Positions 7,035-31,366 of a DNA stretch of 32,000 nucleotides are shown piece after piece. This DNA comes from Pseudodesulfovibrio mercurii (lineage in GTDB: Bacteria; Desulfobacterota; Desulfovibrionia; Desulfovibrionales; Desulfovibrionaceae). Within the stretch, counting starts at the first letter, position 1; each line of letters begins with the position of its first letter. The stretch covers positions 2,250,001 through 2,282,000 of the forward strand of contig NC_016803.1 of assembly GCF_000189295.2 (NCBI RefSeq), read 5' to 3'. Made by a program: the position numbers and the translations under genes. The notes under the pieces are model-generated. The model saw nothing but the letters and a program-made list of their open reading frames with translations, was not told the DNA's origin and made no database searches.

Positions 7035-7979
7035 ATGAAATATCTCACGCTGCATACCGGCGCGAAAATGCCCGCCCTCGGCCTGGGGACGTGGCAGGCG
7101 GCCAAGGGAGAAGTGGCCGCCGCCGTCACCGAGGCGCTGCGCATCGGCTACCGCCACATCGACTGCGCCCACGTCTACGGCAACGAGGCCGAAGTCGGCG
7201 AAGCCCTGGCCGCAACGTCGGTCCCACGCGAGGACCTCTGGATCACGTCCAAACTCTGGAACAACGCCCAGCGCCCGGAGGACGTCCGGCCCGCGCTGGA
7301 GCGCTCCCTCGGGGCGCTCGGCCTCGAGTATCTGGACCTCTACCTGGTCCACTGGCCCGTGCAGCTCTCGCACGCGGTCATGTTCCCGCAGTCCCCGGAC
7401 GACCTCATCCCCTGGACCACGGAGCACGCGCTCGAGACCTGGGGGGCCCTGGAGGACTGCGTCCGGGCCGGGCTTGTGCGCCACCTGGGGACGTCCAACT
7501 TCAGCACGAAAAAGCTCCGGCCCCTGCTCGACAACGGCTCCGTCAAGCCCGCGGTCAGCCAGGTGGAGATGCATCCCTATCAGCAGCAGGACCGGATGCG
7601 CGAATTCTGCCGGGACAACGGCATGGCCGTCACCGGCTTCGCCCCCCTGGGTTCGAGACACCGCCCGGCCCACCAGCACCAGGAGGGCGAGCCGAGCCTG
7701 CTCGACCACCCGGATATCCTCGCCATGGCGGACAGGCTGGGCACCACCCCGGCATCGATACTGCTCGGCTGGGCCGTGACCCGGGGCACCTCGGTCATCC
7801 CCAAATCGACCAACCCGGAGAGGCTCCGGCAGAACCTCGCCGCCGCCGATCTCGAACTGGCCGCATCGGACATGGACGTCATTGCGGCCATGGACATGGG
7901 CTACCGTTTTCTCGACGGCTCTCATTGGATGATGGCGGGCTCCCCGTACACGCCCGAGAATCTCTGGGACGGAGAGTAG
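7035..7979 (+). CDS. Aldo-keto reductase (AKR superfamily, NADPH-dependent aldehyde/ketone reductase)
   Basis: 314 aa. The AKR catalytic tetrad context is visible: YRHIDCAHVYGNE (Asp, Tyr), ITSKLWN (Lys), YLVHWP (His). SD GAGGTGG lies upstream. Confidence 0.9.
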   Translation: MKYLTLHTGAKMPALGLGTWQAAKGEVAAAVTEALRIGYRHIDCAHVYGNEAEVGEALAATSVPREDLWITSKLWNNAQRPEDVRPALERSLGALGLEYLDLYLVHWPVQLSHAVMFPQSPDDLIPWTTEHALETWGALEDCVRAGLVRHLGTSNFSTKKLRPLLDNGSVKPAVSQVEMHPYQQQDRMREFCRDNGMAVTGFAPLGSRHRPAHQHQEGEPSLLDHPDILAMADRLGTTPASILLGWAVTRGTSVIPKSTNPERLRQNLAAADLELAASDMDVIAAMDMGYRFLDGSHWMMAGSPYTPENLWDGE

Positions 7980-7989
7980 CCGTTTCCCT

Positions 7990-8075
7990 TCCCGCGTCCG
8001 CACGCCCCCGCCGAAGGCGCACAAAAGGTTCGGAAGCGTCCAGAGAACCCTTTCCGGAGGGTTCTCTGGCTGCCC
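7990..8075 (+). repeat. Intergenic palindromic repeat, copy A (diverged)
   Basis: cgcacgcccccGCCGAAGGCgCACAAAAgGTTcGgAAgcgTCCAGagaaccctttccggagggttctCTGGctGCC aligns with copy B (25435-25535). It contains a perfect 12-bp hairpin at 8040-8069 (CCAGAGAACCCT / AGGGTTCTCTGG). Confidence 0.7.
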
Positions 8076-8237
8076 CGGTGCGGTGCCCCGGTCCCGCCGG
8101 CAAATCCTCAGGACAGCGGATTCGGACCGCGCCCGAAAAGACGCGACCACGCGGGGGTGAGCCCCGGGACGGAGCGCATCAAGGGGCCGTTGGAGACGGC
8201 CGTCCGGCGAGGGGCCGCCGGAGGCATTCCCCCTGCC

Positions 8238-9509
8238 CTACTTCCGGCAGGGCACGCCGTGGGATTTGTAGATTTCGCCGAGTTGGCGGATGAGGACCTT
8301 GTTGTTGAACACGGCGTGGGCGCGTTCGACGGCGGCGGGAATGATGGTCCGGCGCAGGTCGTTGTCGGTCAGGGCGCGGCGGATGATTTCCGCCAGGGCG
8401 CGGGGGTCGTTGGACGGGCAGAGCAGGCCGGTCCGTTCGTGGGTGACGAGTTCGGGCACGCCGGAGACGTCGGTGGCGGCCACGGGCACGCCGGTGGCCA
8501 TGGCTTCGGCGACGACGTTGGGGATGCCGTCGCGGTCTCCGTCCTTGGCCTTGCGGCAGCCCAGGGTGAAGCAGTCGGTGTGGTCCAGGAGTCTGATGAC
8601 CTCGTCGTGGGTGATGGTGCCGGTGAGGGTGGTGACGTCGTCGAGGCCGAGGTCATGGACGAGGTGTTTGATCCTGCGGTTGAATTTGGCCTTGCCCTCG
8701 CCGACCAGGGTGTAGCGGAAGTCGAGTCCCTGGGCGCGCAGTTCGGCCAGGGCCTGGAGCACGGTGTCGATCCCCTTTTTTTCCACGAAGCGGGCCACGG
8801 TGAGGATGTTGTAGGGCGGTTTTGCCTCGGGGGCGCGGCCGTTGGGCGAGAAGAGGTCGAGGTTGATCCCGTGGTAGACGCAGTGGATGGGGTTGCCGTT
8901 GGCCACGTGTTCGCGGAGGTACTGTTCGTTGTAGCGGGTGCAGGTGACCACGAACCTGGCGCGTTCGACCTTGTCCATGATGCGCCGGGGGTCCTGGGTG
9001 TAGATGTCCTTGGCGTGGGCCGTGAAGGAGAATGGGACGTCGGCCAGGAAGGCGGCGTACATGGTCACTGTGGTCGGGGTGTGGGCGAAGTGGCCGTGCA
9101 GGTGGCCGAGGTCCACGCCGTCGTCGAGCACGGATTTCTGGACGATGTAGCCCGCCTGGAGCATGTGCTTGACCCAGGTGTGTTTCTTGGGGGCCAGGCG
9201 GAAGCGCTTCTTCATGATCTTGAGGCAGTCGAGGTAGCGGCCGGGCATGCGCAGGAAGAGGCGGATGTTGTGGTAGAGCAGCCGGGGCAGTCCCCAGATC
9301 ATGGATTCGGGCAGGTAGGTGACCTTGGCCTTGATGCGCTTGATGGACTCGTGGGAGAAATTCTCGCGCGGGGCGCGCATGGAGTAGATGTGGATCTTGA
9401 AGCCCATCTCCTCGAGCAGTCGGATCTCGTTGGAGATGAAGGTCTCGGAAATGCGCGGGTACCCCTTGAGCACCATGCCCAGGGTCGTTCGTCCGTCGGG
9501 TGCGGGCAT
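8238..9509 (-). CDS. Glycosyltransferase family 4 (WcaL-like)
   Basis: This is the C-terminal 423 aa of track ORF 8238..10307. The real start is ATG 9509..9507, giving MPAPDGRTTLGMVLKGYPRISETFISNEIRLLEEMGF..., and it overlaps the upstream stop as ATGA. The GT4 C-terminal E-x7-E region is GIPNVVAEAMATGVPVAATDVSGVPELV. Confidence 0.85.
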   Translation of the reverse strand: MPAPDGRTTLGMVLKGYPRISETFISNEIRLLEEMGFKIHIYSMRAPRENFSHESIKRIKAKVTYLPESMIWGLPRLLYHNIRLFLRMPGRYLDCLKIMKKRFRLAPKKHTWVKHMLQAGYIVQKSVLDDGVDLGHLHGHFAHTPTTVTMYAAFLADVPFSFTAHAKDIYTQDPRRIMDKVERARFVVTCTRYNEQYLREHVANGNPIHCVYHGINLDLFSPNGRAPEAKPPYNILTVARFVEKKGIDTVLQALAELRAQGLDFRYTLVGEGKAKFNRRIKHLVHDLGLDDVTTLTGTITHDEVIRLLDHTDCFTLGCRKAKDGDRDGIPNVVAEAMATGVPVAATDVSGVPELVTHERTGLLCPSNDPRALAEIIRRALTDNDLRRTIIPAAVERAHAVFNNKVLIRQLGEIYKSHGVPCRK

Positions 9510-10672
9510 CAGCAGTTCTCGCGGAAGAATTGAAGGCGTTCGCGCATGACTTCGAGGCCGGTCATGGCGAAGGAGTCCAGGGCCGAGGAGTAGGGCGAGG
9601 GGTCTTCGAGCAGGGCGTTGATCTTGGCGCGCATGGTTTCGGGCGAGACCTGACCCCAGGGGATGTAGTCGCACAGTCCGCGGTCCTTGAAGACCTGGGC
9701 GCGGATGAGCTGTTCCCGGCGGGGGTTGTCGCGCGGGATGATCAGGGACGGCTTTTTCAGGGAAAGAATCTCGCACATGGTGTTGTAGCCGCCCATGGAG
9801 ACCACCAGGTCGGACCGGGCCATGCGTTTCTCCATGTTGCGCACGAAGGGCTTGATCTGGACCTTGAGGGCGCGGGCGCGGTCGGCCAGTTCGTCGAGCC
9901 GTTCCGGGGAGAGGAACGGGCCGGTGATCATCAGGGTCTTGAAGTCCACGGTGCCGTTGGTCTCGAGCATCTTGAGGTAGGTGTCGAGGACCACGTAGCC
10001 GTCGCCGCCGCCGCCGATGGTGACGATGACCTGCTTGTGCTTGCGCCGGGTCCTGCGGGTGCTCGGCACGAAGCGCGGGATGTAGCCGGTGAACACGGTC
10101 TTGGCGGCGATGTCTTCCGGGAAGGCGTACTCCACGATGGGGTCGTACATGGCCTTGGAGCCGTAGACCCAGATCTCGGAGTAGAGGTCGCGCAGGACAT
10201 CGGGAAATTTCTTGCGCGCCCAGTCGGCGCGGGTGGACTCGGCGTCGTCGAGGATGTCGCGCAGCCCGAGGACCACGCGGGAGCAGGGCAGGTGCTTGCG
10301 CATCCACTTGAGGGTGGGCAGGACCTCGCTCTTGAGGCCGGTGGGAACCTTGTCCACGATGAGCAGGTCCGGCTTGAAGCTCTTGGCCGTGGCCGAAATG
10401 ATGTTGGTGCGGATGGAGATGGCGATCTTGGGATCGACCTTGATGGAATGGGGCATGTAGACCATGTTGGTCTTCTTGATCATGCCGGGAATGCGCACGA
10501 AGTCGATGCCCCTGGGCATGGTGTACCGGCCGACGATGGGCGAGCCGGTGACGATGAGGATGTTGACCTCGGGCCCCACCAGGTTACGGGCGATGGCCAT
10601 GGTGCGGCGGATGTGTCCCAGACCGTAGGTGTCGTGGGAGTACATCAGGATATTGTAGGCTTTCGATTCCAT
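9509..10672 (-). CDS. Glycosyltransferase, MJ1255/VC2487-type (GT28 C-terminal-domain-like)
   Basis: Track ORF 9509..10723. I prefer ATG 10672, giving MESKAYNILMYSHDTYGLGHIRRTMAIA; the YSHDxxGLGHxRR N-terminus is typical of this family. The alternative GTG 10723 cannot be excluded. Confidence 0.75.
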   Translation of the reverse strand: MESKAYNILMYSHDTYGLGHIRRTMAIARNLVGPEVNILIVTGSPIVGRYTMPRGIDFVRIPGMIKKTNMVYMPHSIKVDPKIAISIRTNIISATAKSFKPDLLIVDKVPTGLKSEVLPTLKWMRKHLPCSRVVLGLRDILDDAESTRADWARKKFPDVLRDLYSEIWVYGSKAMYDPIVEYAFPEDIAAKTVFTGYIPRFVPSTRRTRRKHKQVIVTIGGGGDGYVVLDTYLKMLETNGTVDFKTLMITGPFLSPERLDELADRARALKVQIKPFVRNMEKRMARSDLVVSMGGYNTMCEILSLKKPSLIIPRDNPRREQLIRAQVFKDRGLCDYIPWGQVSPETMRAKINALLEDPSPYSSALDSFAMTGLEVMRERLQFFRENC

Positions 10673-23953: not shown

Positions 23954-24715
23954 TTAGGCGCGGTACATGTGCTTGAAGCGCTCGTCGTAGAGCAGCGAGC
24001 GGGCCGTGCCCGCGTCCTCGCGCCCCTGGCCGGGCAGGACCAGGAACACGGTCTGGCGGGTGAAGCCGTTTTCGCGCGCGGCCTGGGCCAGCGCGCCCAG
24101 CTCGGTCTCCACGACCTTCTCGTCCGGCCAGCCCACGCGGCAGGCCATGACCACCAGGGTGGCCGCGTCCAGCCCCCCGGCCAGCAGCTCCCGCTGCACG
24201 CCCTCGGGGTCGCCCGCCGACAGATAGATGCACATGGCCGCGCCGTGGGCCGCAAGCCCGCGCAACGCCTCGCCCTCGGGCACCGGCGTCTTGCCCGCCA
24301 TGCGGGTGAAGATCAGGGTCTGGGTGACCTCGGGCACGGTGTACGACCGTTTGGCCGCGGCAGCCGCCGCGAACCCGGCGGTCACGCCCGGCACCACCTC
24401 GTAGGAAATTCCGGCCGCGTCCAGCAGGGCCATCTGCTCGCGGATGGCCCCGAACAGCGACGGGTCGCCCGTGTGCACCCTGGCCACCGTGCCGCCCGAG
24501 GCCACGGTCTCGGCCATGAGCTCGTGCGTTTCCGCCAGGGTCATGGGCGCGGAATCGGCAACCCGCGCGCCGGGCTTGGCCCCGGCCACCACCTCGACGG
24601 GCACCAGGGACCCGGCATAGAGCACCAGGTCGACCTGCCCGATGAGCCGCCGCCCCTTGACGGTCAGCAACTCCGGGTCGCCCGGCCCGGCCCCGATGAA
24701 ATACACGTCCGCCAT
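23954..24715 (-). CDS. cbiF: Cobalt-precorrin-4 C11-methyltransferase
   Basis: True start ATG 24715, in an ATGA overlap with the exonuclease stop, giving MADVYFIGAGPGDPELLTVKG...VARVHTGDPSLFGAI...YEVVPGVTA. Confidence 0.88.
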   Translation of the reverse strand: MADVYFIGAGPGDPELLTVKGRRLIGQVDLVLYAGSLVPVEVVAGAKPGARVADSAPMTLAETHELMAETVASGGTVARVHTGDPSLFGAIREQMALLDAAGISYEVVPGVTAGFAAAAAAKRSYTVPEVTQTLIFTRMAGKTPVPEGEALRGLAAHGAAMCIYLSAGDPEGVQRELLAGGLDAATLVVMACRVGWPDEKVVETELGALAQAARENGFTRQTVFLVLPGQGREDAGTARSLLYDERFKHMYRA

Positions 24716-25251
24716 CACAGCACCTTGTTCATGAAGTCCGGGTTCCGGCGCAGGCCGTTGACAGCGATGAGCGCGCACGCCTCGGCGTCCGAGGCCGCGT
24801 TGTGGTGGTTCAGCTCGATGCCCAGGTATTCGCACACGTTGGGCAGCTTGTTGCACGAAAGCTCCCAGGTCTTGCGGGCCAGCTGCACCGTGCACAGGAA
24901 CGGCTGCTCCGGCGCGGTCCAGCCGGACTCCTTGCAGCAGGTGTGCAGGACCGACTTGTCAAAGGCCGCGTTGTGCGCCACCAGGAAGTCCGCGCCCCGG
25001 AAATGGACCTCCAGCTCGGGCCACAGATCCCCGAAACTCGGCTCGTTGCACACGTCCTCCCAATGGATGCCGTGCACACGCACGCAGAACGGATTGAACC
25101 TGGCCCTGGGCGGACGGATCAGTCGATAGTCCCGGGCCACGATCTCGCCCCGGTCCACCACCACGATGCCCAATGCACAAGCCGAATCCCGCTTGGGATC
25201 CGCCGTCTCGAAATCAATGGCCACAAACCGCACGTCGTCCAATGTGGGCAT
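24715..25251 (-). CDS. DEDDh 3'-5' exonuclease (DnaQ/epsilon-like domain, standalone)
   Basis: Exo I is VAIDFETAD, Exo II is LVAHNAAFD and Exo III is HHNAASDAEA. The SD GGAGG lies inside repeat copy C. Confidence 0.85.
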   Translation of the reverse strand: MPTLDDVRFVAIDFETADPKRDSACALGIVVVDRGEIVARDYRLIRPPRARFNPFCVRVHGIHWEDVCNEPSFGDLWPELEVHFRGADFLVAHNAAFDKSVLHTCCKESGWTAPEQPFLCTVQLARKTWELSCNKLPNVCEYLGIELNHHNAASDAEACALIAVNGLRRNPDFMNKVL

Positions 25252-25256
25252 AAAGC

Positions 25257-25385
25257 GCCTCCGGCGGCCGGGGGAAGGGGGAAGGGAAACCCTTTGAAAA
25301 GGGCTTTCCCTTCCCCCTCCCCCCGGACCCCCATCCCCCTTCCCTTCCTAAACTTTTTAGCGCGCCTTCGGCGGGGAAGGAACTC
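25257..25385 (-). repeat. Intergenic palindromic repeat, copy C (long form)
   Basis: Near-identical over about 120 nt to 31116-31240. It contains a long G/A-rich hairpin (25270-25325) and a CCGCC-TTC-GGCGG mini-hairpin. Confidence 0.85.
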
Positions 25386-25434
25386 GGGAATGGGTTCAAT
25401 CTTATCAGGTTGCTCCAAAAATATCGTTCATGCC

Positions 25435-25535
25435 GCTCCCTCCCCGCGCCCGCACGCACTTGCCGAAGGCACACAAAAAGTTTGAAAGGGGGGTCCAGGG
25501 GGGAAACTTTTTCAAAAGTTTCCCCCCTGGCCGCC
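25435..25535 (+). repeat. Intergenic palindromic repeat, copy B (short form, opposite orientation to C)
   Basis: ...GCCGAAGGCacACAAAAAGTTTgaAAGG..GGGGTCC... followed by a perfect 17-bp palindrome CCAGGGGGGAAACTTTT-tc-AAAAGTTTCCCCCCTGG (25485-25520) and the terminal GGCCGCCGGAGGC. Confidence 0.8.
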
Positions 25536-25549
25536 GGAGGCATTCTTCT

Positions 25550-26254
25550 CTAAAAGCCTTCTTCCAGCGGCGGCCAGACGAGGGCCTGGGTGTCGGTGTC
25601 CACGTCGGCCACGGGTTGCAGGGCCAGGTTTCGGCTGGCCGGCTTGAGGTGCACGAACCGACCGCGCATTTCCAGGCGGCCTTCGGCCAGCCATTGCAGG
25701 GCCTGGGGGTAGATGCGGTGTTCCAGCCCGAGGATGCGCGCCCCCAGCGCGTCGCCGTCCTCGCCCGTCAGGCACGGCACGGCTGCCTGGATGATGACCG
25801 GGCCGTGGTCCATCTGTTCGTCCACGAAGTGCACGGTGCAGCCGGAGATCTTGACCCCGTAGTTCACGGCGTCGGCCTGGCCGTGCACGCCCGGGAAGCT
25901 CGGCAGCAGGGCCGGATGGATGTTGACCACGCGGCCCCGGAACGTCTCCAGGAAGACCGGGGTGACGATGCGCATGAACCCGGCCATGGCCACCACGCCG
26001 GTCTCGTTCACGCCGGACTCGCGGATGGCCCGGACCATCTCCTCGTCGAAGGCCTCGCGGGAGGGAAACTCCGTGTGCAGCAGCACGCGGGTGGGGATGT
26101 TGTGGTTGCGCGCCCTGGTCAGGCCGAAGGCGTCCGCCCTGTTGGACACGACCACCTTGATCTCGGCGTCGAGCATGCCCGCTTCGATGCGATCGATGAT
26201 GGATTGCAGGTTGGACCCGCCCCCGGACACGAGGACGGCGATGGGCATTGCCAT
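25550..26254 (-). CDS. purN: Phosphoribosylglycinamide formyltransferase
   Basis: True start ATG 26254, with AAGGGAG upstream, giving MAMPIAVLVSGGGSNLQSIID...VVNIHPALLPSFPG...GCTVHFVDEQMDHGPVI. Confidence 0.92.
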   Translation of the reverse strand: MAMPIAVLVSGGGSNLQSIIDRIEAGMLDAEIKVVVSNRADAFGLTRARNHNIPTRVLLHTEFPSREAFDEEMVRAIRESGVNETGVVAMAGFMRIVTPVFLETFRGRVVNIHPALLPSFPGVHGQADAVNYGVKISGCTVHFVDEQMDHGPVIIQAAVPCLTGEDGDALGARILGLEHRIYPQALQWLAEGRLEMRGRFVHLKPASRNLALQPVADVDTDTQALVWPPLEEGF

Positions 26255-26503
26255 GGATGCTCCCTTGGATGGTTGAAGACGGCGGGGTCGGCCCCGCCCC
26301 CGAATTTGGCCCAAAGCGCGCGCTTTTTCAAGGCCGGATTTCCCCCGGCCGGGCTGCGGCGGGCCGACCAACGCGTTCGGGTATTAAATAGGTGGCAAAA
26401 AAAATCATGATACGATACGGATTACCATTAGCGACAACAAGAGGCGTTCCTTCCCGGCCCGGCGTCGGCGCGAACCCGCCTCGCATACACAAGGAGATTT
26501 TCC

Positions 26504-28420: not shown

Positions 28421-28441
28421 GTTCTTCTCCAGATATTCGGG

Positions 28442-31108
28442 CTAGCCCATCACGCTTTCCAGCCGCGCCTTGAGCTGGGTGAGCTTGGTTTTTTCCTCTT
28501 CCATCTCGGCCAGCTTGGTCTTTTCGCCCTCGACCACCTCGGCCGGGGCGTTGTTGACGAAGCCGGGGTTCTTGAGCTTGCCGGACACGCCCTTCATGGT
28601 CTTTTCGAGCTTGGCCAGGTTCTTGTCCAGCCGGGCCAGTTCGGCGTCGAAATCGACCACGCCCTCCAGCGGCACGAAGAGCTCGTTGCCCTGGACCACG
28701 GCCGCGCCCGAGGCCTTGGGGCCCTTGACGTCCGGACCGATGGTCAGGTTCTCGATGCGGGCCAGGGACTTGATCAGGTCCAGGTTGGCATTCAGGACCG
28801 CCTTGTCCGCGTCGCTGACCGTCTTGACGAGCAGGTCGAGCTTGCGTGCCGGTTCGATGAGCAGTTCGGTGCGGATGTTCCGGGTGCCGGAGACCACGCC
28901 CATGAACAGCTCCATCTCGGCCACGGCGCGCTCGTCCCGGCAGTCGGGCCGCTTGTCCGGGAAGGGCAGGGTGGCGATGTCCTCGCTCCGGTCGTCGCCC
29001 GCCGGGCGGGGCAGGACGTTCCAGATTTCCTGGGTGATGAACGGGGTCACCGGGTGGAGCAGGATCATGGTCTCGGAGAGCACGGTCCACAGGACCCGCT
29101 GCGTGGCCTCCTTGGCCCGCTCGTCCTCGCCGTAGAGCGCGGGCTTGATCATCTCCAGGTACCAGTCGCAGAACTCGGACCAGATGAACTTGTACAGGGT
29201 CTGGGCGATCTCGTTGAAGCGGTAGTCGTTGGTGGCCGAGGCCACGGTCTCCTTGACCTCCTCCAGCCGGTGCAGAATCCAGCGGTCGGCCAGGTCCGAG
29301 GCCTCGTGCACGTCGGCGTCCGGGATCACGTCGGGCAGGTTCATCATGGCGAACCGGGTGGCGTTCCAGACCTTGTTCATGAAGTGCTTGTAGCCCTCGA
29401 TGCGCTGCTCCGAGAGCTTGATGTCCCGGCCCATGGCCGCGAAGCTGGTCAGGGTGAAGCGCAGGGCGTCGGCCCCGTACTTGCCGATCATGTCCAGGGG
29501 ATCGATGACGTTGCCCGTGGACTTGGACATCTTCTTGCCCTGCTCGTCGCGCACCAGGGCGTGGATGTAGACGTGGTGGAACGGGACCTCGCCCATGAAC
29601 TGGAGGCCCATCATCATCATGCGCGCCACCCAGAAGAAGAGGATGTCGAAGCCGGTGACCAGGCAGGAGGTCGGGTAGTACTTGGCCAGCTCCTTCGTGT
29701 CGTCGGGCCAGCCCATGGTCGAGAACGGCCACAGGGCCGAGGAGAACCAGGTGTCCAGCACGTCCTCGTCCTGGACCAGGCGGGAGGAGCCGCACTTGGG
29801 GCAGACCGTGGGGTCTTCCTTGGCCACGATGAGCTCGCCGCACTCCTCGCAGGTCCAGGCCGGGATGCGGTGGCCCCACCAGATCTGGCGGGAGATGCAC
29901 CAGTCGCGGATCTCGTCCAGCCACTGGTAGTAGGTCTTGGTCCAGTGTTCCGGGAAAATCTGGGTCTTGTCCGGCACGGCGGCGCGCGCCTTTTCGGCCA
30001 GGGGCTTCATGGACACGAACCACTGGGTGGAGACGTGGGGCTCGATCACGGACTTGCAGCGGTAGCAGACGCCCACGGAGTGGTCGTGCTCAACGACCTC
30101 GACCACGCGGCCCTCGGCCTCCAGGTCGGCCATGACCGCGGCGCGGGCCGCCTGCACGGTCATGCCCCGGTACTTCTCGGGCGCGTTGTCGTTGATCATG
30201 CCCTGCTCGTCCAGGACGGAGAGGACCTCGAGGTTGTGCCTGCGGCCGATCTCCCAGTCGTTCATGTCGTGGGCCGGGGTGACCTTCAGGCAGCCGGTGC
30301 CGAACTCCACGTCCACGTAGGAATCGCCGATGATCGGCAGCTCGCGGCCCACCAGGGGCAGGATGGCGGTCTTGCCGATCAGGTGGTTGAAGCGGTCGTC
30401 GTCCGGGTTCACGGCGATGGCCGTGTCGCCCAGCATGGTCTCGGGCCGGGTCGTGGCGATGATCAGGTCGCCGGAGCCGTCGGCCAGGGAATACTTGATG
30501 TGATGCAGGTGGCCGGGCTTGTTCTCGTGCTCGACCTCGTCGTCGGCCAGGGCGGTGTGGCAGCGGTTGCACCAGTTGATGATGTAGTCGCCCTTGTAGA
30601 TCAGCCCCTGCTCGTACAGGGCCACGAAGACCTCGCGCACGGCCTTGGCCCGCTGCTCGTCGAAGGTGAAGCACTCGCGGGTCCAGTCCACGCTGGCCCC
30701 CATGCGCCGGATCTGGCTGAGGATGTGGTCGCCCTTCTCCTTCTTCCACTCCCAGACGCGCTCGATGAACTTGTCCCGGCCCAGGTCGTCGCGGGTCAGG
30801 CCCTCGGCCTTGAGCTGGCGCTCGACCACGTTCTGGGTGGCGATGCCCGCGTGGTCCGTGCCCGGCACCCACAGGACGTTCCTGCCCTGCTGCCGGTTGA
30901 AGCGGCAGAGGATGTCCTGAAGGGTCAGGTTCAGGGCGTGGCCCATGTGCAGGACGCCGGTGACGTTGGGCGGCGGGATGACGATCGAATAGGGGTCGCC
31001 CGGACCGTCGGGGTCCGGGGTGAAGGTCTTTTCCGCTTCCCAGTGGGACTCCCACTTTTCTTCCACGTCCCACGGCTCGTAGGCCTTGGCTAACTCTTTC
31101 CGCGCCAT
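28442..31108 (-). CDS. valS: Valine--tRNA ligase
   Basis: True start ATG 31108 gives MARKELAKAYEPWDVEEKW. The HIGH motif is PPPNVTGVLHMGHAL and the KMSKS motif is GKKMSKSTGN; the C-terminus is a coiled coil. The 28 extra N-terminal codons in the track ORF (MGVRGKGRGKALCKGFPSPLPPAAGGTN) are a read-through of repeat copy D. Confidence 0.95.
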   Translation of the reverse strand: MARKELAKAYEPWDVEEKWESHWEAEKTFTPDPDGPGDPYSIVIPPPNVTGVLHMGHALNLTLQDILCRFNRQQGRNVLWVPGTDHAGIATQNVVERQLKAEGLTRDDLGRDKFIERVWEWKKEKGDHILSQIRRMGASVDWTRECFTFDEQRAKAVREVFVALYEQGLIYKGDYIINWCNRCHTALADDEVEHENKPGHLHHIKYSLADGSGDLIIATTRPETMLGDTAIAVNPDDDRFNHLIGKTAILPLVGRELPIIGDSYVDVEFGTGCLKVTPAHDMNDWEIGRRHNLEVLSVLDEQGMINDNAPEKYRGMTVQAARAAVMADLEAEGRVVEVVEHDHSVGVCYRCKSVIEPHVSTQWFVSMKPLAEKARAAVPDKTQIFPEHWTKTYYQWLDEIRDWCISRQIWWGHRIPAWTCEECGELIVAKEDPTVCPKCGSSRLVQDEDVLDTWFSSALWPFSTMGWPDDTKELAKYYPTSCLVTGFDILFFWVARMMMMGLQFMGEVPFHHVYIHALVRDEQGKKMSKSTGNVIDPLDMIGKYGADALRFTLTSFAAMGRDIKLSEQRIEGYKHFMNKVWNATRFAMMNLPDVIPDADVHEASDLADRWILHRLEEVKETVASATNDYRFNEIAQTLYKFIWSEFCDWYLEMIKPALYGEDERAKEATQRVLWTVLSETMILLHPVTPFITQEIWNVLPRPAGDDRSEDIATLPFPDKRPDCRDERAVAEMELFMGVVSGTRNIRTELLIEPARKLDLLVKTVSDADKAVLNANLDLIKSLARIENLTIGPDVKGPKASGAAVVQGNELFVPLEGVVDFDAELARLDKNLAKLEKTMKGVSGKLKNPGFVNNAPAEVVEGEKTKLAEMEEEKTKLTQLKARLESVMG

Positions 31109-31115
31109 ATTGGTG

Positions 31116-31240
31116 CCTCCGGCGGCCGGGGGAAGGGGAGAGGGAAACCCTTTGCAAAGGGCTTTCCCTCTCCCCTTCCCCCGGACCCCCATCCCCTCTT
31201 CCTTCCTAAACTTTTTATGCCGCCTTCGGCGGAGTCCGGA
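31116..31240 (-). repeat. Intergenic palindromic repeat, copy D (long form)
   Basis: Near-identical to copy C. The hairpin at 31128-31182 (GGGGGAAGGGGAGAGGGAAACCCTTTG / CAAAGGGcTTTCCCTCTCCCCTTCCCCC) has 27 bp and one bulged C. Terminal CCTCC at 31116-31120 is the valS SD on the minus strand. Confidence 0.85.
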
Positions 31241-31366
31241 TCGTTTTCGGGGGGTCTGGTTTCGTATCGGGGCGGTGCTTGAAACACCGCAGTATCATTC
31301 CATATTTTCTTGCGGTCAACGCCCGCGCTTGATAGCGTCGGACTACACTTGTCAAGAGCGCCGCAT

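Follow-up and report, generated by a model that had tools for sequence, protein, structure and literature searches.

What supplies the translation start signal of valS, the gene for valyl-tRNA synthetase (ValRS), in Pseudodesulfovibrio mercurii, and at which codon does the gene begin? Both questions are raised by a 32,000-nt stretch of its genome (NC_016803.1, positions 2,250,001–2,282,000; the whole of this stretch is referred to here as the window), in which an interspersed repeat element lies directly upstream of the leftwards transcribed valS. We consider it likely that this element is a non-coding hairpin repeat, of the kind represented by repetitive extragenic palindromic (REP) sequences, their doublets (REPINs) and bacterial interspersed mosaic elements (BIMEs), or by MITEs (miniature transposable elements with inverted repeats), and that its terminus serves valS and an exonuclease gene elsewhere in the window as their ribosome-binding site.

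The position of the valS start follows from comparison with homologues. The program-made list of open reading frames (ORFs) gives valS as 28442–31192, encoding 916 amino acids, which is 28 codons more than the real gene. The 888-residue product of the coding sequence 28442–31108 (minus strand, start ATG at 31106–31108) has the full ValRS domain set (Pfam tRNA-synt_1, Anticodon_1 and Val_tRNA-synt_C), and its best matches, at 91–84% identity, place the window in Pseudodesulfovibrio. Because close homologues are essentially all 888 residues long and cover 100% of the 888-residue query, the 916-residue ORF is evidently an artefact, as a preliminary description of this DNA had proposed; it begins at a spurious in-frame ATG (31190–31192, minus strand) within the repeat.

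The valS copy of the element, copy D (31115–31232, minus strand; 118 nt), is of the long form and is modular in appearance. Read towards valS, it consists of a left mini-hairpin, CCGCC-GAA-GGCGG, with a GNA triloop (31220–31232), a conserved box AAAAAGTTTAGGAAGG (31201–31216), a G-rich stretch containing the ATG at 31192, a long G/A-rich hairpin (approximately 31126–31184), and an invariant right terminus GGCCGCCGGAGGC (31115–31127) with a Shine-Dalgarno (SD) sequence, GGAGG, at 31116–31120, all on the minus strand. The mini-hairpin and the box were read from the sequence; the box has two exact occurrences in the window, where 0.02 are expected by chance, and the 13-mer terminus has four. Both hairpins had been recognised in the preliminary description and are present. 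The long one, identified by folding and by compensatory differences between copies, has 28 bp with one bulged G; the 8 nt that had been placed between its end and the SD sequence become 5–7 nt, according to the choice of stem end, an immaterial change. The GGAGG lies 7 nt (CACCAAT) before the valS ATG (31108), as described earlier. Folding of the long hairpin alone gives −66.5 kcal/mol (z = −6.8 relative to shuffled sequences) with the GGAGG predicted to be unpaired, and the SD sequence is likewise unpaired in the predicted fold of the whole 211-nt valS leader (z = −6.0). The mini-hairpin loop is GCA in the orthologous element of a related genome (L048) and GTA in a copy from another (L049), with the stem preserved in both.

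The same terminus is found before a gene unrelated to valS, as had also been claimed. Copy C (25257–25374, minus strand) is a direct repeat of copy D, 90% identical to it over 118 nt, and a covariance model of the family matches both (28.7 bits for C; 32.8 bits, E=1.3e-7, at 31114–31204 for D). Its GGAGG (25258–25262) is 6 nt before the ATG (25251) of an exonuclease gene (24715–25251, minus strand) with an RNase_T domain, and the hairpins of the two copies differ in compensated fashion, with GGGGAGAGGG/CCCTCTCCCC in one and GGGGGAAGGG/CCCTTCCCCC in the other.

The 125-nt unit proposed at first is indeed repeated, but the family is wider and mosaic, and this unit represents only its long subtype. 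In the window the covariance model finds exactly four members, the two long copies C and D and two others, and across other genomes at least 155 (155 non-overlapping copies in 100 of the genome tiles listed). These tiles come from a scan of a genome collection with one pattern of exact motifs, in which AAAGTT was required and the last four bases (AGGC) were left free; it matched at least 120 tiles, in the Desulfovibrionaceae and at least five other phyla. Among the 134 matches listed, 117 have the hairpin and end in AGGC, although the pattern left this free, and the remaining 17, for the most part from unrelated taxa, are chance matches or, in the case of L062, truncated where the tile ends; AAAGTT is in all family members sampled, as the pattern demanded. 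The hosts among the matches listed include Pseudodesulfovibrio, Maridesulfovibrio, Solidesulfovibrio, Desulfolutivibrio and other Desulfovibrionaceae, together with metagenome-assembled genomes (MAGs), whose taxonomy may be imprecise, from Candidatus Aminicenantes (three), Acidobacteriota (two), and Omnitrophota, Clostridia, Verrucomicrobiota and Deferrimicrobium (one each). Four copies are on proviral contigs. An RNAalifold alignment of 54 short-form copies shows covariation of the basal hairpin pairs (GC/AU 30/23, 33/19 and 27/18, the last with five CG in addition) and an invariant terminus, and most Desulfovibrionaceae copies have GCGAAGC-type hairpins at the position of the mini-hairpin. 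The unit is modular and comprises a GNA-loop mini-hairpin, a AAAAGTTT box, a G-run, GGTCCRG, a hairpin of variable stem with a TTTTCAAAA-like tip, and the invariant terminus GGCCGCCGGAGGC(AT); it probably spreads, or is copied by gene conversion, within genomes, with exchange between phyla and secondary loss.

The placement of these copies relative to genes is strongly polar. Tallied over the 117 distinct copies among the matches listed, the GGAGGC end is within 12 nt of the start of a co-oriented downstream gene in 25 of 40 cases, most often 6–7 nt before it, and within 25 nt of the stop of a convergent gene in 31 of 48. The opposite, AAAAGTT, end is within 12 nt of a divergent gene start in only one of 42 cases (median 109 nt) and of an upstream gene stop in six of 25 (median 76 nt). 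For the 55 copies with both neighbours resolved, the terminus is near a boundary in 35, compared to 13.9 expected for uniform placement in the same gap, and 35 was not reached in any of 100000 simulations; the left end is near one in seven, with 13.2 expected. The boundary is of two types, either a start codon 5–10 nt downstream in sense or a stop codon in antisense. The bias toward starts that the preliminary description had put forward as a test of its proposal is thus present. A further 21 of the 117 copies, about 18%, are inside an ORF.

Ten products that start 3–10 nt after a GGAGG of the element were checked by Pfam. They are RF-1 (prfA), Obg, a PALP enzyme (trpB-like), an NTP transferase, WecB, a flavoprotein, a SpoU methylase, a saccharopine dehydrogenase, a radical-SAM protein and an SDR protein, and because their domains mostly begin at residues 1–8 the ten start codons are evidently real; the genes are, by these domains, unrelated housekeeping genes. 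In valS and in all ten, no second SD-like motif intervenes between terminus and start.

The GGAGG evidently belongs to the repeat and not to valS, since it is invariant also in copies beside stop codons and inside ORFs, including those of nonribosomal peptide synthetases (NRPSs), and since valS orthologues without the hairpin and terminus use a different SD sequence, AAGGAAGGA. We propose that valS transcription starts at a promoter-like TTGACC-17-GATACT (31291–31319, minus strand), which was found by a consensus scan and is kept in L048; this would place the element inside the 5′ untranslated region of valS, as most of a leader of about 175 nt. The GGAGG at the end of the element, left accessible immediately 3′ of the highly stable hairpin, would then act as the valS ribosome-binding site, and as the terminus is in effect a single-stranded consensus SD sequence, any sense copy a few nucleotides before a start would be expected to act in the same way. 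The use of this GGAGG by ribosomes, like a role for the hairpin in stabilising or processing the mRNA, we infer from sequence and predicted folds; protection of the 5′ region by the long perfect stem, or its cleavage by RNase III, is conceivable.

Several considerations weigh against this interpretation. First, gene boundaries outside the window were set by a heuristic of ORFs and GC content at third codon positions (GC3) and not by annotation, and the demand for exact motifs in the scan favours well-conserved copies. Secondly, copies at start codons make up only about a quarter of the sample, those adjacent to stops are about as many, and about 18% are intragenic, so that SD donation cannot be the sole reason for the existence of the family. 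Thirdly, Watson-Crick pairs account for more than 97% of the hairpin stems on either strand, and the weak excess of G-U pairs on the forward strand (40 vs 22) is independent of the orientation of the neighbouring gene, which points to a DNA-level palindrome rather than to selection on one transcript. Finally, there are few signs of how the element moves: at valS-cobA and valS, filled and empty sites could not be cleanly paired, the flanks being too diverged for exact boundaries; the only candidate target-site duplication around doublets is AT...AT, which is not distinguishable from an extension of the inverted repeat; and no transposase or parent insertion sequence was identified, the gene inspected between two copies in L171 (2872–3726) being metallo-beta-lactamase-like, as judged from an HxHxDH-type motif alone.

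Some structural features of the family are recorded here in their own right. At 31160–31196 in copy D and 25300–25338 in copy C (both minus strand) the long form contains at least four G-runs (GGGGATGGGGGTCCGGGGGAAGGGG), and on this pattern would be capable of forming a G-quadruplex in competition with the hairpin. To the left of an invariant TCCR box lies a segment that mirrors the hairpin 5′ arm (a mirror repeat, reversed on the same strand and uncomplemented), with 31186–31216 matching 31152–31181 in copy D and 25475–25494 matching 25499–25515 in copy B. It covaries with the 5′ arm between copies (identity 0.657, compared to 0.451 ± 0.014 for permuted partners), and its layout is the one that an intramolecular purine-purine-pyrimidine triplex would need. 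In an Aminicenantes subfamily (e.g. L130, L131, L152 and L159) the conserved left flank is longer; this flank, ..GTGGTACAATGACTGACCGTGTATGAAAAGTT, lies 30 nt left of AAAGTT and contains an extended −10-like TGnTACAAT that may be an outward promoter.

The two remaining window copies face stop codons, such that two of the four (C and D) place GGAGG at a start codon and two (A and B) do not. Copy B (25462–25541, plus strand; 73.9 bits) is of the short form and inverted relative to C. It is made up of GCCGAAGGC, AAAAAGTTT, GGGGTCCAG, a 13-bp hairpin and the terminus; 8 nt separate this terminus from the stop codon that ends a formyltransferase gene (25550–26371, minus strand; Pfam Formyl_trans_N). 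Copy A (8010–8225, plus strand) is a composite or degenerate member, in which a left end and hairpin (8010–8102) are followed by extra sequence and an exact terminus (8213–8225); the covariance model matches 8020–8102 (34.8 bits) and 8202–8226. It lies between convergent genes at 7035–7979 (plus) and 8238–10307 (minus), both with Pfam matches.

Copies B and C together form a doublet with the termini outward (25257–25541), and this arrangement is the rule. When neighbours within 400 nt of each other are counted, 24 pairs result; in 22 the AAAAGTT ends are turned towards each other and the GGAGGC termini away, two pairs are tandem, and inward-pointing termini do not occur. Doublets are 161–332 bp long. 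Their outer 13 bp or more form perfect inverted repeats, to which AT or ATTC is often added, and about half of the doublets separate co-directional genes, the stop codon of one lying at one end and the start codon of the next at the other; single units, about 72% of copies, are without terminal inverted repeats. When the whole B–C spacer is folded as RNA (−198.7 kcal/mol, z = −10.6), the termini are predicted to pair and to bury the SD sequence of the exonuclease gene, in contrast to the singleton at valS, whose predicted fold leaves it free. We note that in the ORF list the exonuclease gene overlaps a 313-residue TP_methylase (RsmI-like) ORF by 181 nt (24715–24895), although a gene call on a Logan contig puts the start of the next gene at the exonuclease stop, so that the true overlap is probably a few nucleotides. 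The only public contig with an identical exonuclease (L001; Logan contig SRR3926153_2734, 933 nt) begins 16 nt upstream of the repeat terminus (at 17–29), consistent with short-read assemblies breaking at the repeat.

Intragenic copies occur in frame within NRPS and polyketide synthase (PKS) ORFs of 700–2600 residues, in several frames and both orientations, in Aminicenantes, Omnitrophota, Acidobacteriota and Deferrimicrobium MAGs. They lie in adenylation (A) domains (L092, L076, L124, L140, L095, L061 and L078) or after ketosynthase (KS) domains (L094, L127 and L135), with at least five copies in 8 kb of L094. Examples are an insertion between LTAEKF and YKTGDL (...LTAEKF...QKFFGGSRGAILQKSPPGRRR-LYKTGDL) and one after GIGGTNAHVVLEE.

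Comparison with known repeats helps to place the family. GTAG/CGTC REP families are stem-loops with an asymmetric tag, found as singletons and as dimers with the tags outward (HH; spacers of 20–100 bp or more), near ORF ends and with termini that give a translation signal, and some copies are intragenic and in frame (PMC3733652). Our family likewise consists of short interspersed stem-loops with a conserved asymmetric end tag, as singletons and as inverted dimers of the HH kind, close to or overlapping ORF ends and in some cases in frame within genes. However, the tag is GGCCGCCGGAGGC(AT), with GTAG occurring only within an optional internal module, CCCGGTAG, in a few copies; the GTAG terminus of REPs gives a TAG stop codon, whereas this one gives a start signal, the SD sequence; the unit is longer (60–120 nt) and mosaic, with its GNA mini-hairpin, AAAAGTTT box and mirror-repeat G-run; and the termini are near-identical across phyla, whereas REP families are usually lineage-specific. 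Lacking the GTAG/CGTC tag, built as a longer mosaic unit and sharing its terminus across phyla, the repeat is, on its sequence features, a variant beside the REP families and not a member of them.

MITEs such as the Neisseria Correia, ERIC and BOX/RUP elements are also non-autonomous, co-transcribed intergenic repeats with long hairpins, and the doublets resemble them in size and in their perfect terminal inverted repeats; most copies of our family, however, are half-units, and neither a target-site duplication nor a parent insertion sequence was identified. MITEs are 100–300 bp long, influence how neighbouring genes are expressed and give rise to ORFs that are spurious or novel, and SD donation by a MITE is unmentioned in a 2024 MITE review and a paper on pneumococcal repeats (PMC10969869; PMC3049150). 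Rickettsia palindromic elements share the in-frame insertion into protein-coding genes, with the repeat translated as a loop or linker peptide; our family differs in being mostly intergenic, with an intragenic minority in NRPS/PKS linkers of Aminicenantes, Omnitrophota and Acidobacteriota. REP sequences near stop codons of E. coli reportedly modulate translation of the upstream gene and mRNA decay, a finding attributed to Liang, Rudd and Deutscher in 2015. In about a quarter of our copies, similarly, the distance from a stable hairpin to a stop codon is no more than about 25 nt, although these copies depart from the canonical terminator pattern, and ribosome stalling and 3′-end protection are no part of the present evidence.

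Other identities were considered and set aside. No element hairpin is called as an intrinsic terminator in either orientation, the only call being a 5-bp stem at the tip, and the T-run of copy B (AAACTTTTT) is about 17 nt from the stem in antisense and does not immediately follow it. The RYYYAAC/GTTRRRY cores of integron attC sites are absent, as judged from the sequence; HDV-like, hammerhead and twister ribozymes give no Rfam signal; and IS200/IS605 ends were rejected on inspection of the sequence. Rfam 15 has no match to the window at gathering score, with only sub-threshold generic miRNA-hairpin matches at permissive E-values, and a scan of viral sequences with a left-end-only pattern gave chance matches only. 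A BLAST search of the consensus unit against plasmids and phages found no match, possibly because of the low-complexity filter. In openly searchable papers neither strand of the terminus appears in a relevant context, and no relevant Desulfovibrio repeats or MITEs are described, although an earlier description is possible.

A more ambitious reading, which we hold only tentatively and think doubtful as a whole, is that the element is a portable gene-boundary cassette that spreads horizontally. A single unit would deliver a hairpin-protected SD sequence. In a doublet between co-directional genes the 13-nt termini, GCCUCCGGCGGCC and GGCCGCCGGAGGC, would pair and lock the downstream SD sequence until a ribosome terminating a few nucleotides upstream melted the helix, so that the doublet would act as a mobile device for translational coupling. 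The covarying mirror repeat, with its R*R-Y triplex geometry, might in addition be recognised on single-stranded DNA by a mobilising enzyme.

Against the simpler proposal of a hairpin repeat whose terminus acts as an SD sequence stand four rival explanations, all of them less well supported. The one that survives best, although we regard it as unlikely, is that the element is purely selfish or neutral DNA, that its position reflects tolerated or targeted insertion at the AT-rich gene ends of GC-rich genomes, and that use of its GGAGG is incidental or does not occur. The equal numbers of copies adjacent to stops and starts, the intragenic copies, the symmetry of the palindrome at the DNA level, and the turnover and concerted evolution described below would all be expected of such DNA. 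Incidental proximity does not readily account for valS and ten other genes with no alternative SD-like motif after the terminus, nor for a spacing that peaks at the optimum for initiation, and in the valS orthologues that are without hairpin and terminus (L049 and L129) the ATG is preceded, at the usual spacing, by AAGGAAGGA.

A second rival, decidedly improbable, reverses the relationship, with GGAGG being the host gene's own SD sequence and also the target site, just upstream of which the mobile DNA inserts; target specificity of this kind would produce the tight clustering 5–10 nt before starts. Orthologous loci bear directly on this. The valS leaders of L048 and Desulfovibrio caledoniensis lm2024 (L163, about 91% nucleotide identity) carry the same long element, and the hairpin in L163 has compensatory differences from that of copy D. 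P. piezophilus has only a degenerate copy (18.5 bits), GGGTCCAG ... GCCGGAGGCAC ... ATG, and the presence there of GCCGGAGGCAC with a weak element match is in keeping with a resident SD sequence, except that this copy also keeps the GGGTCCAG box. The leaders of L049 and L129, lacking the hairpin and terminus, have ...ATAAAGGAAGGAA-N6-ATG instead, with AAGGAAGGA and not GCCGGAGGC as the SD sequence. Moreover, copies beside stops, both outer ends of doublets and copies within NRPS/PKS coding sequence all show the complete 13-mer GGCCGCCGGAGGC unchanged, usually with AT after it, and no SD sequence is expected beside stops or inside such genes. We note that L129 (3985–4030) and L049 (9960–10000) retain GCCGAAG..GCATAAAGGAAGGAA, similar to the element's left part, with AGGAAGG at SD distance; most likely an internal deletion left the AGGAAGG of the element as the SD sequence.

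Upstream of cobA-hemD a copy is present in four relatives, as the short form in three and as the long form in one (L129), and these copies end in GGAGGC followed by 6–7 nt and ATG. In the window this site (28421–28441; compared with L163 2293–2432, L129, L049 and L048) is without the element and consists of a 21-nt spacer with its own GGAG. The long form in L129 at the site where the others have the short one suggests subtype replacement or conversion, and the L163 valS hairpin, which carries the stem sequence of copy C of the window, suggests gene conversion between copies. From these patterns of presence and absence at valS and cobA-hemD, and from the L163 stem, we conclude that the element has long been present in the genus, has been acquired and lost at individual loci and evolves in concert.

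A third rival, to which we give very little credence, is a cis-regulatory RNA dedicated to the control of valS and the other downstream genes, whether as a leader, attenuator, riboswitch or protein-binding site. A stable, covarying hairpin in a 5′ untranslated region is what this would require, and the left AAAAGTTT box could compete with the hairpin 3′ arm for AAACTTTT, giving a possible alternative structure. The same element nevertheless precedes functionally unrelated genes, occurs in both orientations, after stops and in frame within ORFs, is not at valS in close relatives and has no Rfam match, and its stems are equally perfect on both strands.

The weakest rival, that the 916-residue ORF is real and ValRS has a repeat-encoded 28-residue N-terminal extension, has in its favour an open frame and a purine-rich, SD-like sequence before the ATG at 31192, and can practically be dismissed on the uniform 888-residue length of close homologues at 100% coverage, the absence of the extension sequence in relatives, the out-of-frame position of the equivalent ATG of copy C relative to the exonuclease gene, the location of the ATG at the foot of the −66.5 kcal/mol hairpin, and the openness of the element in most frames as a general property. 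Because of this openness, false N-terminal extensions such as the 916-residue "ValRS" are a general hazard of the repeat family. We note that gene callers would also extend genes through the element in L171 (3791–5224) and L113 (896–959), one such extension being MYKKFLRGPGAVFIKRAPGRRRHK... ahead of a lipoprotein-like signal peptide with a probable GTG start 8 nt after GGAGG.

In practical terms, then, the element yields false N-termini in annotation and probably breaks short-read assemblies; it also inserts in frame in NRPS/PKS linkers. Its tag is new, none such having been found in Rfam 15 or the openly searchable literature. The 13-nt terminus common to Desulfovibrionaceae and to Aminicenantes, Acidobacteriota, Omnitrophota and Clostridia MAGs implies that a very small non-coding element has crossed between phyla, and the polarity toward gene boundaries, with the outward doublets, suggests a new targeting rule or a selectable function. 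If our interpretation is correct, an interspersed repeat would supply the ribosome-binding site of essential genes (valS, prfA and obg), and turnover of the repeat would directly rewire translation initiation.

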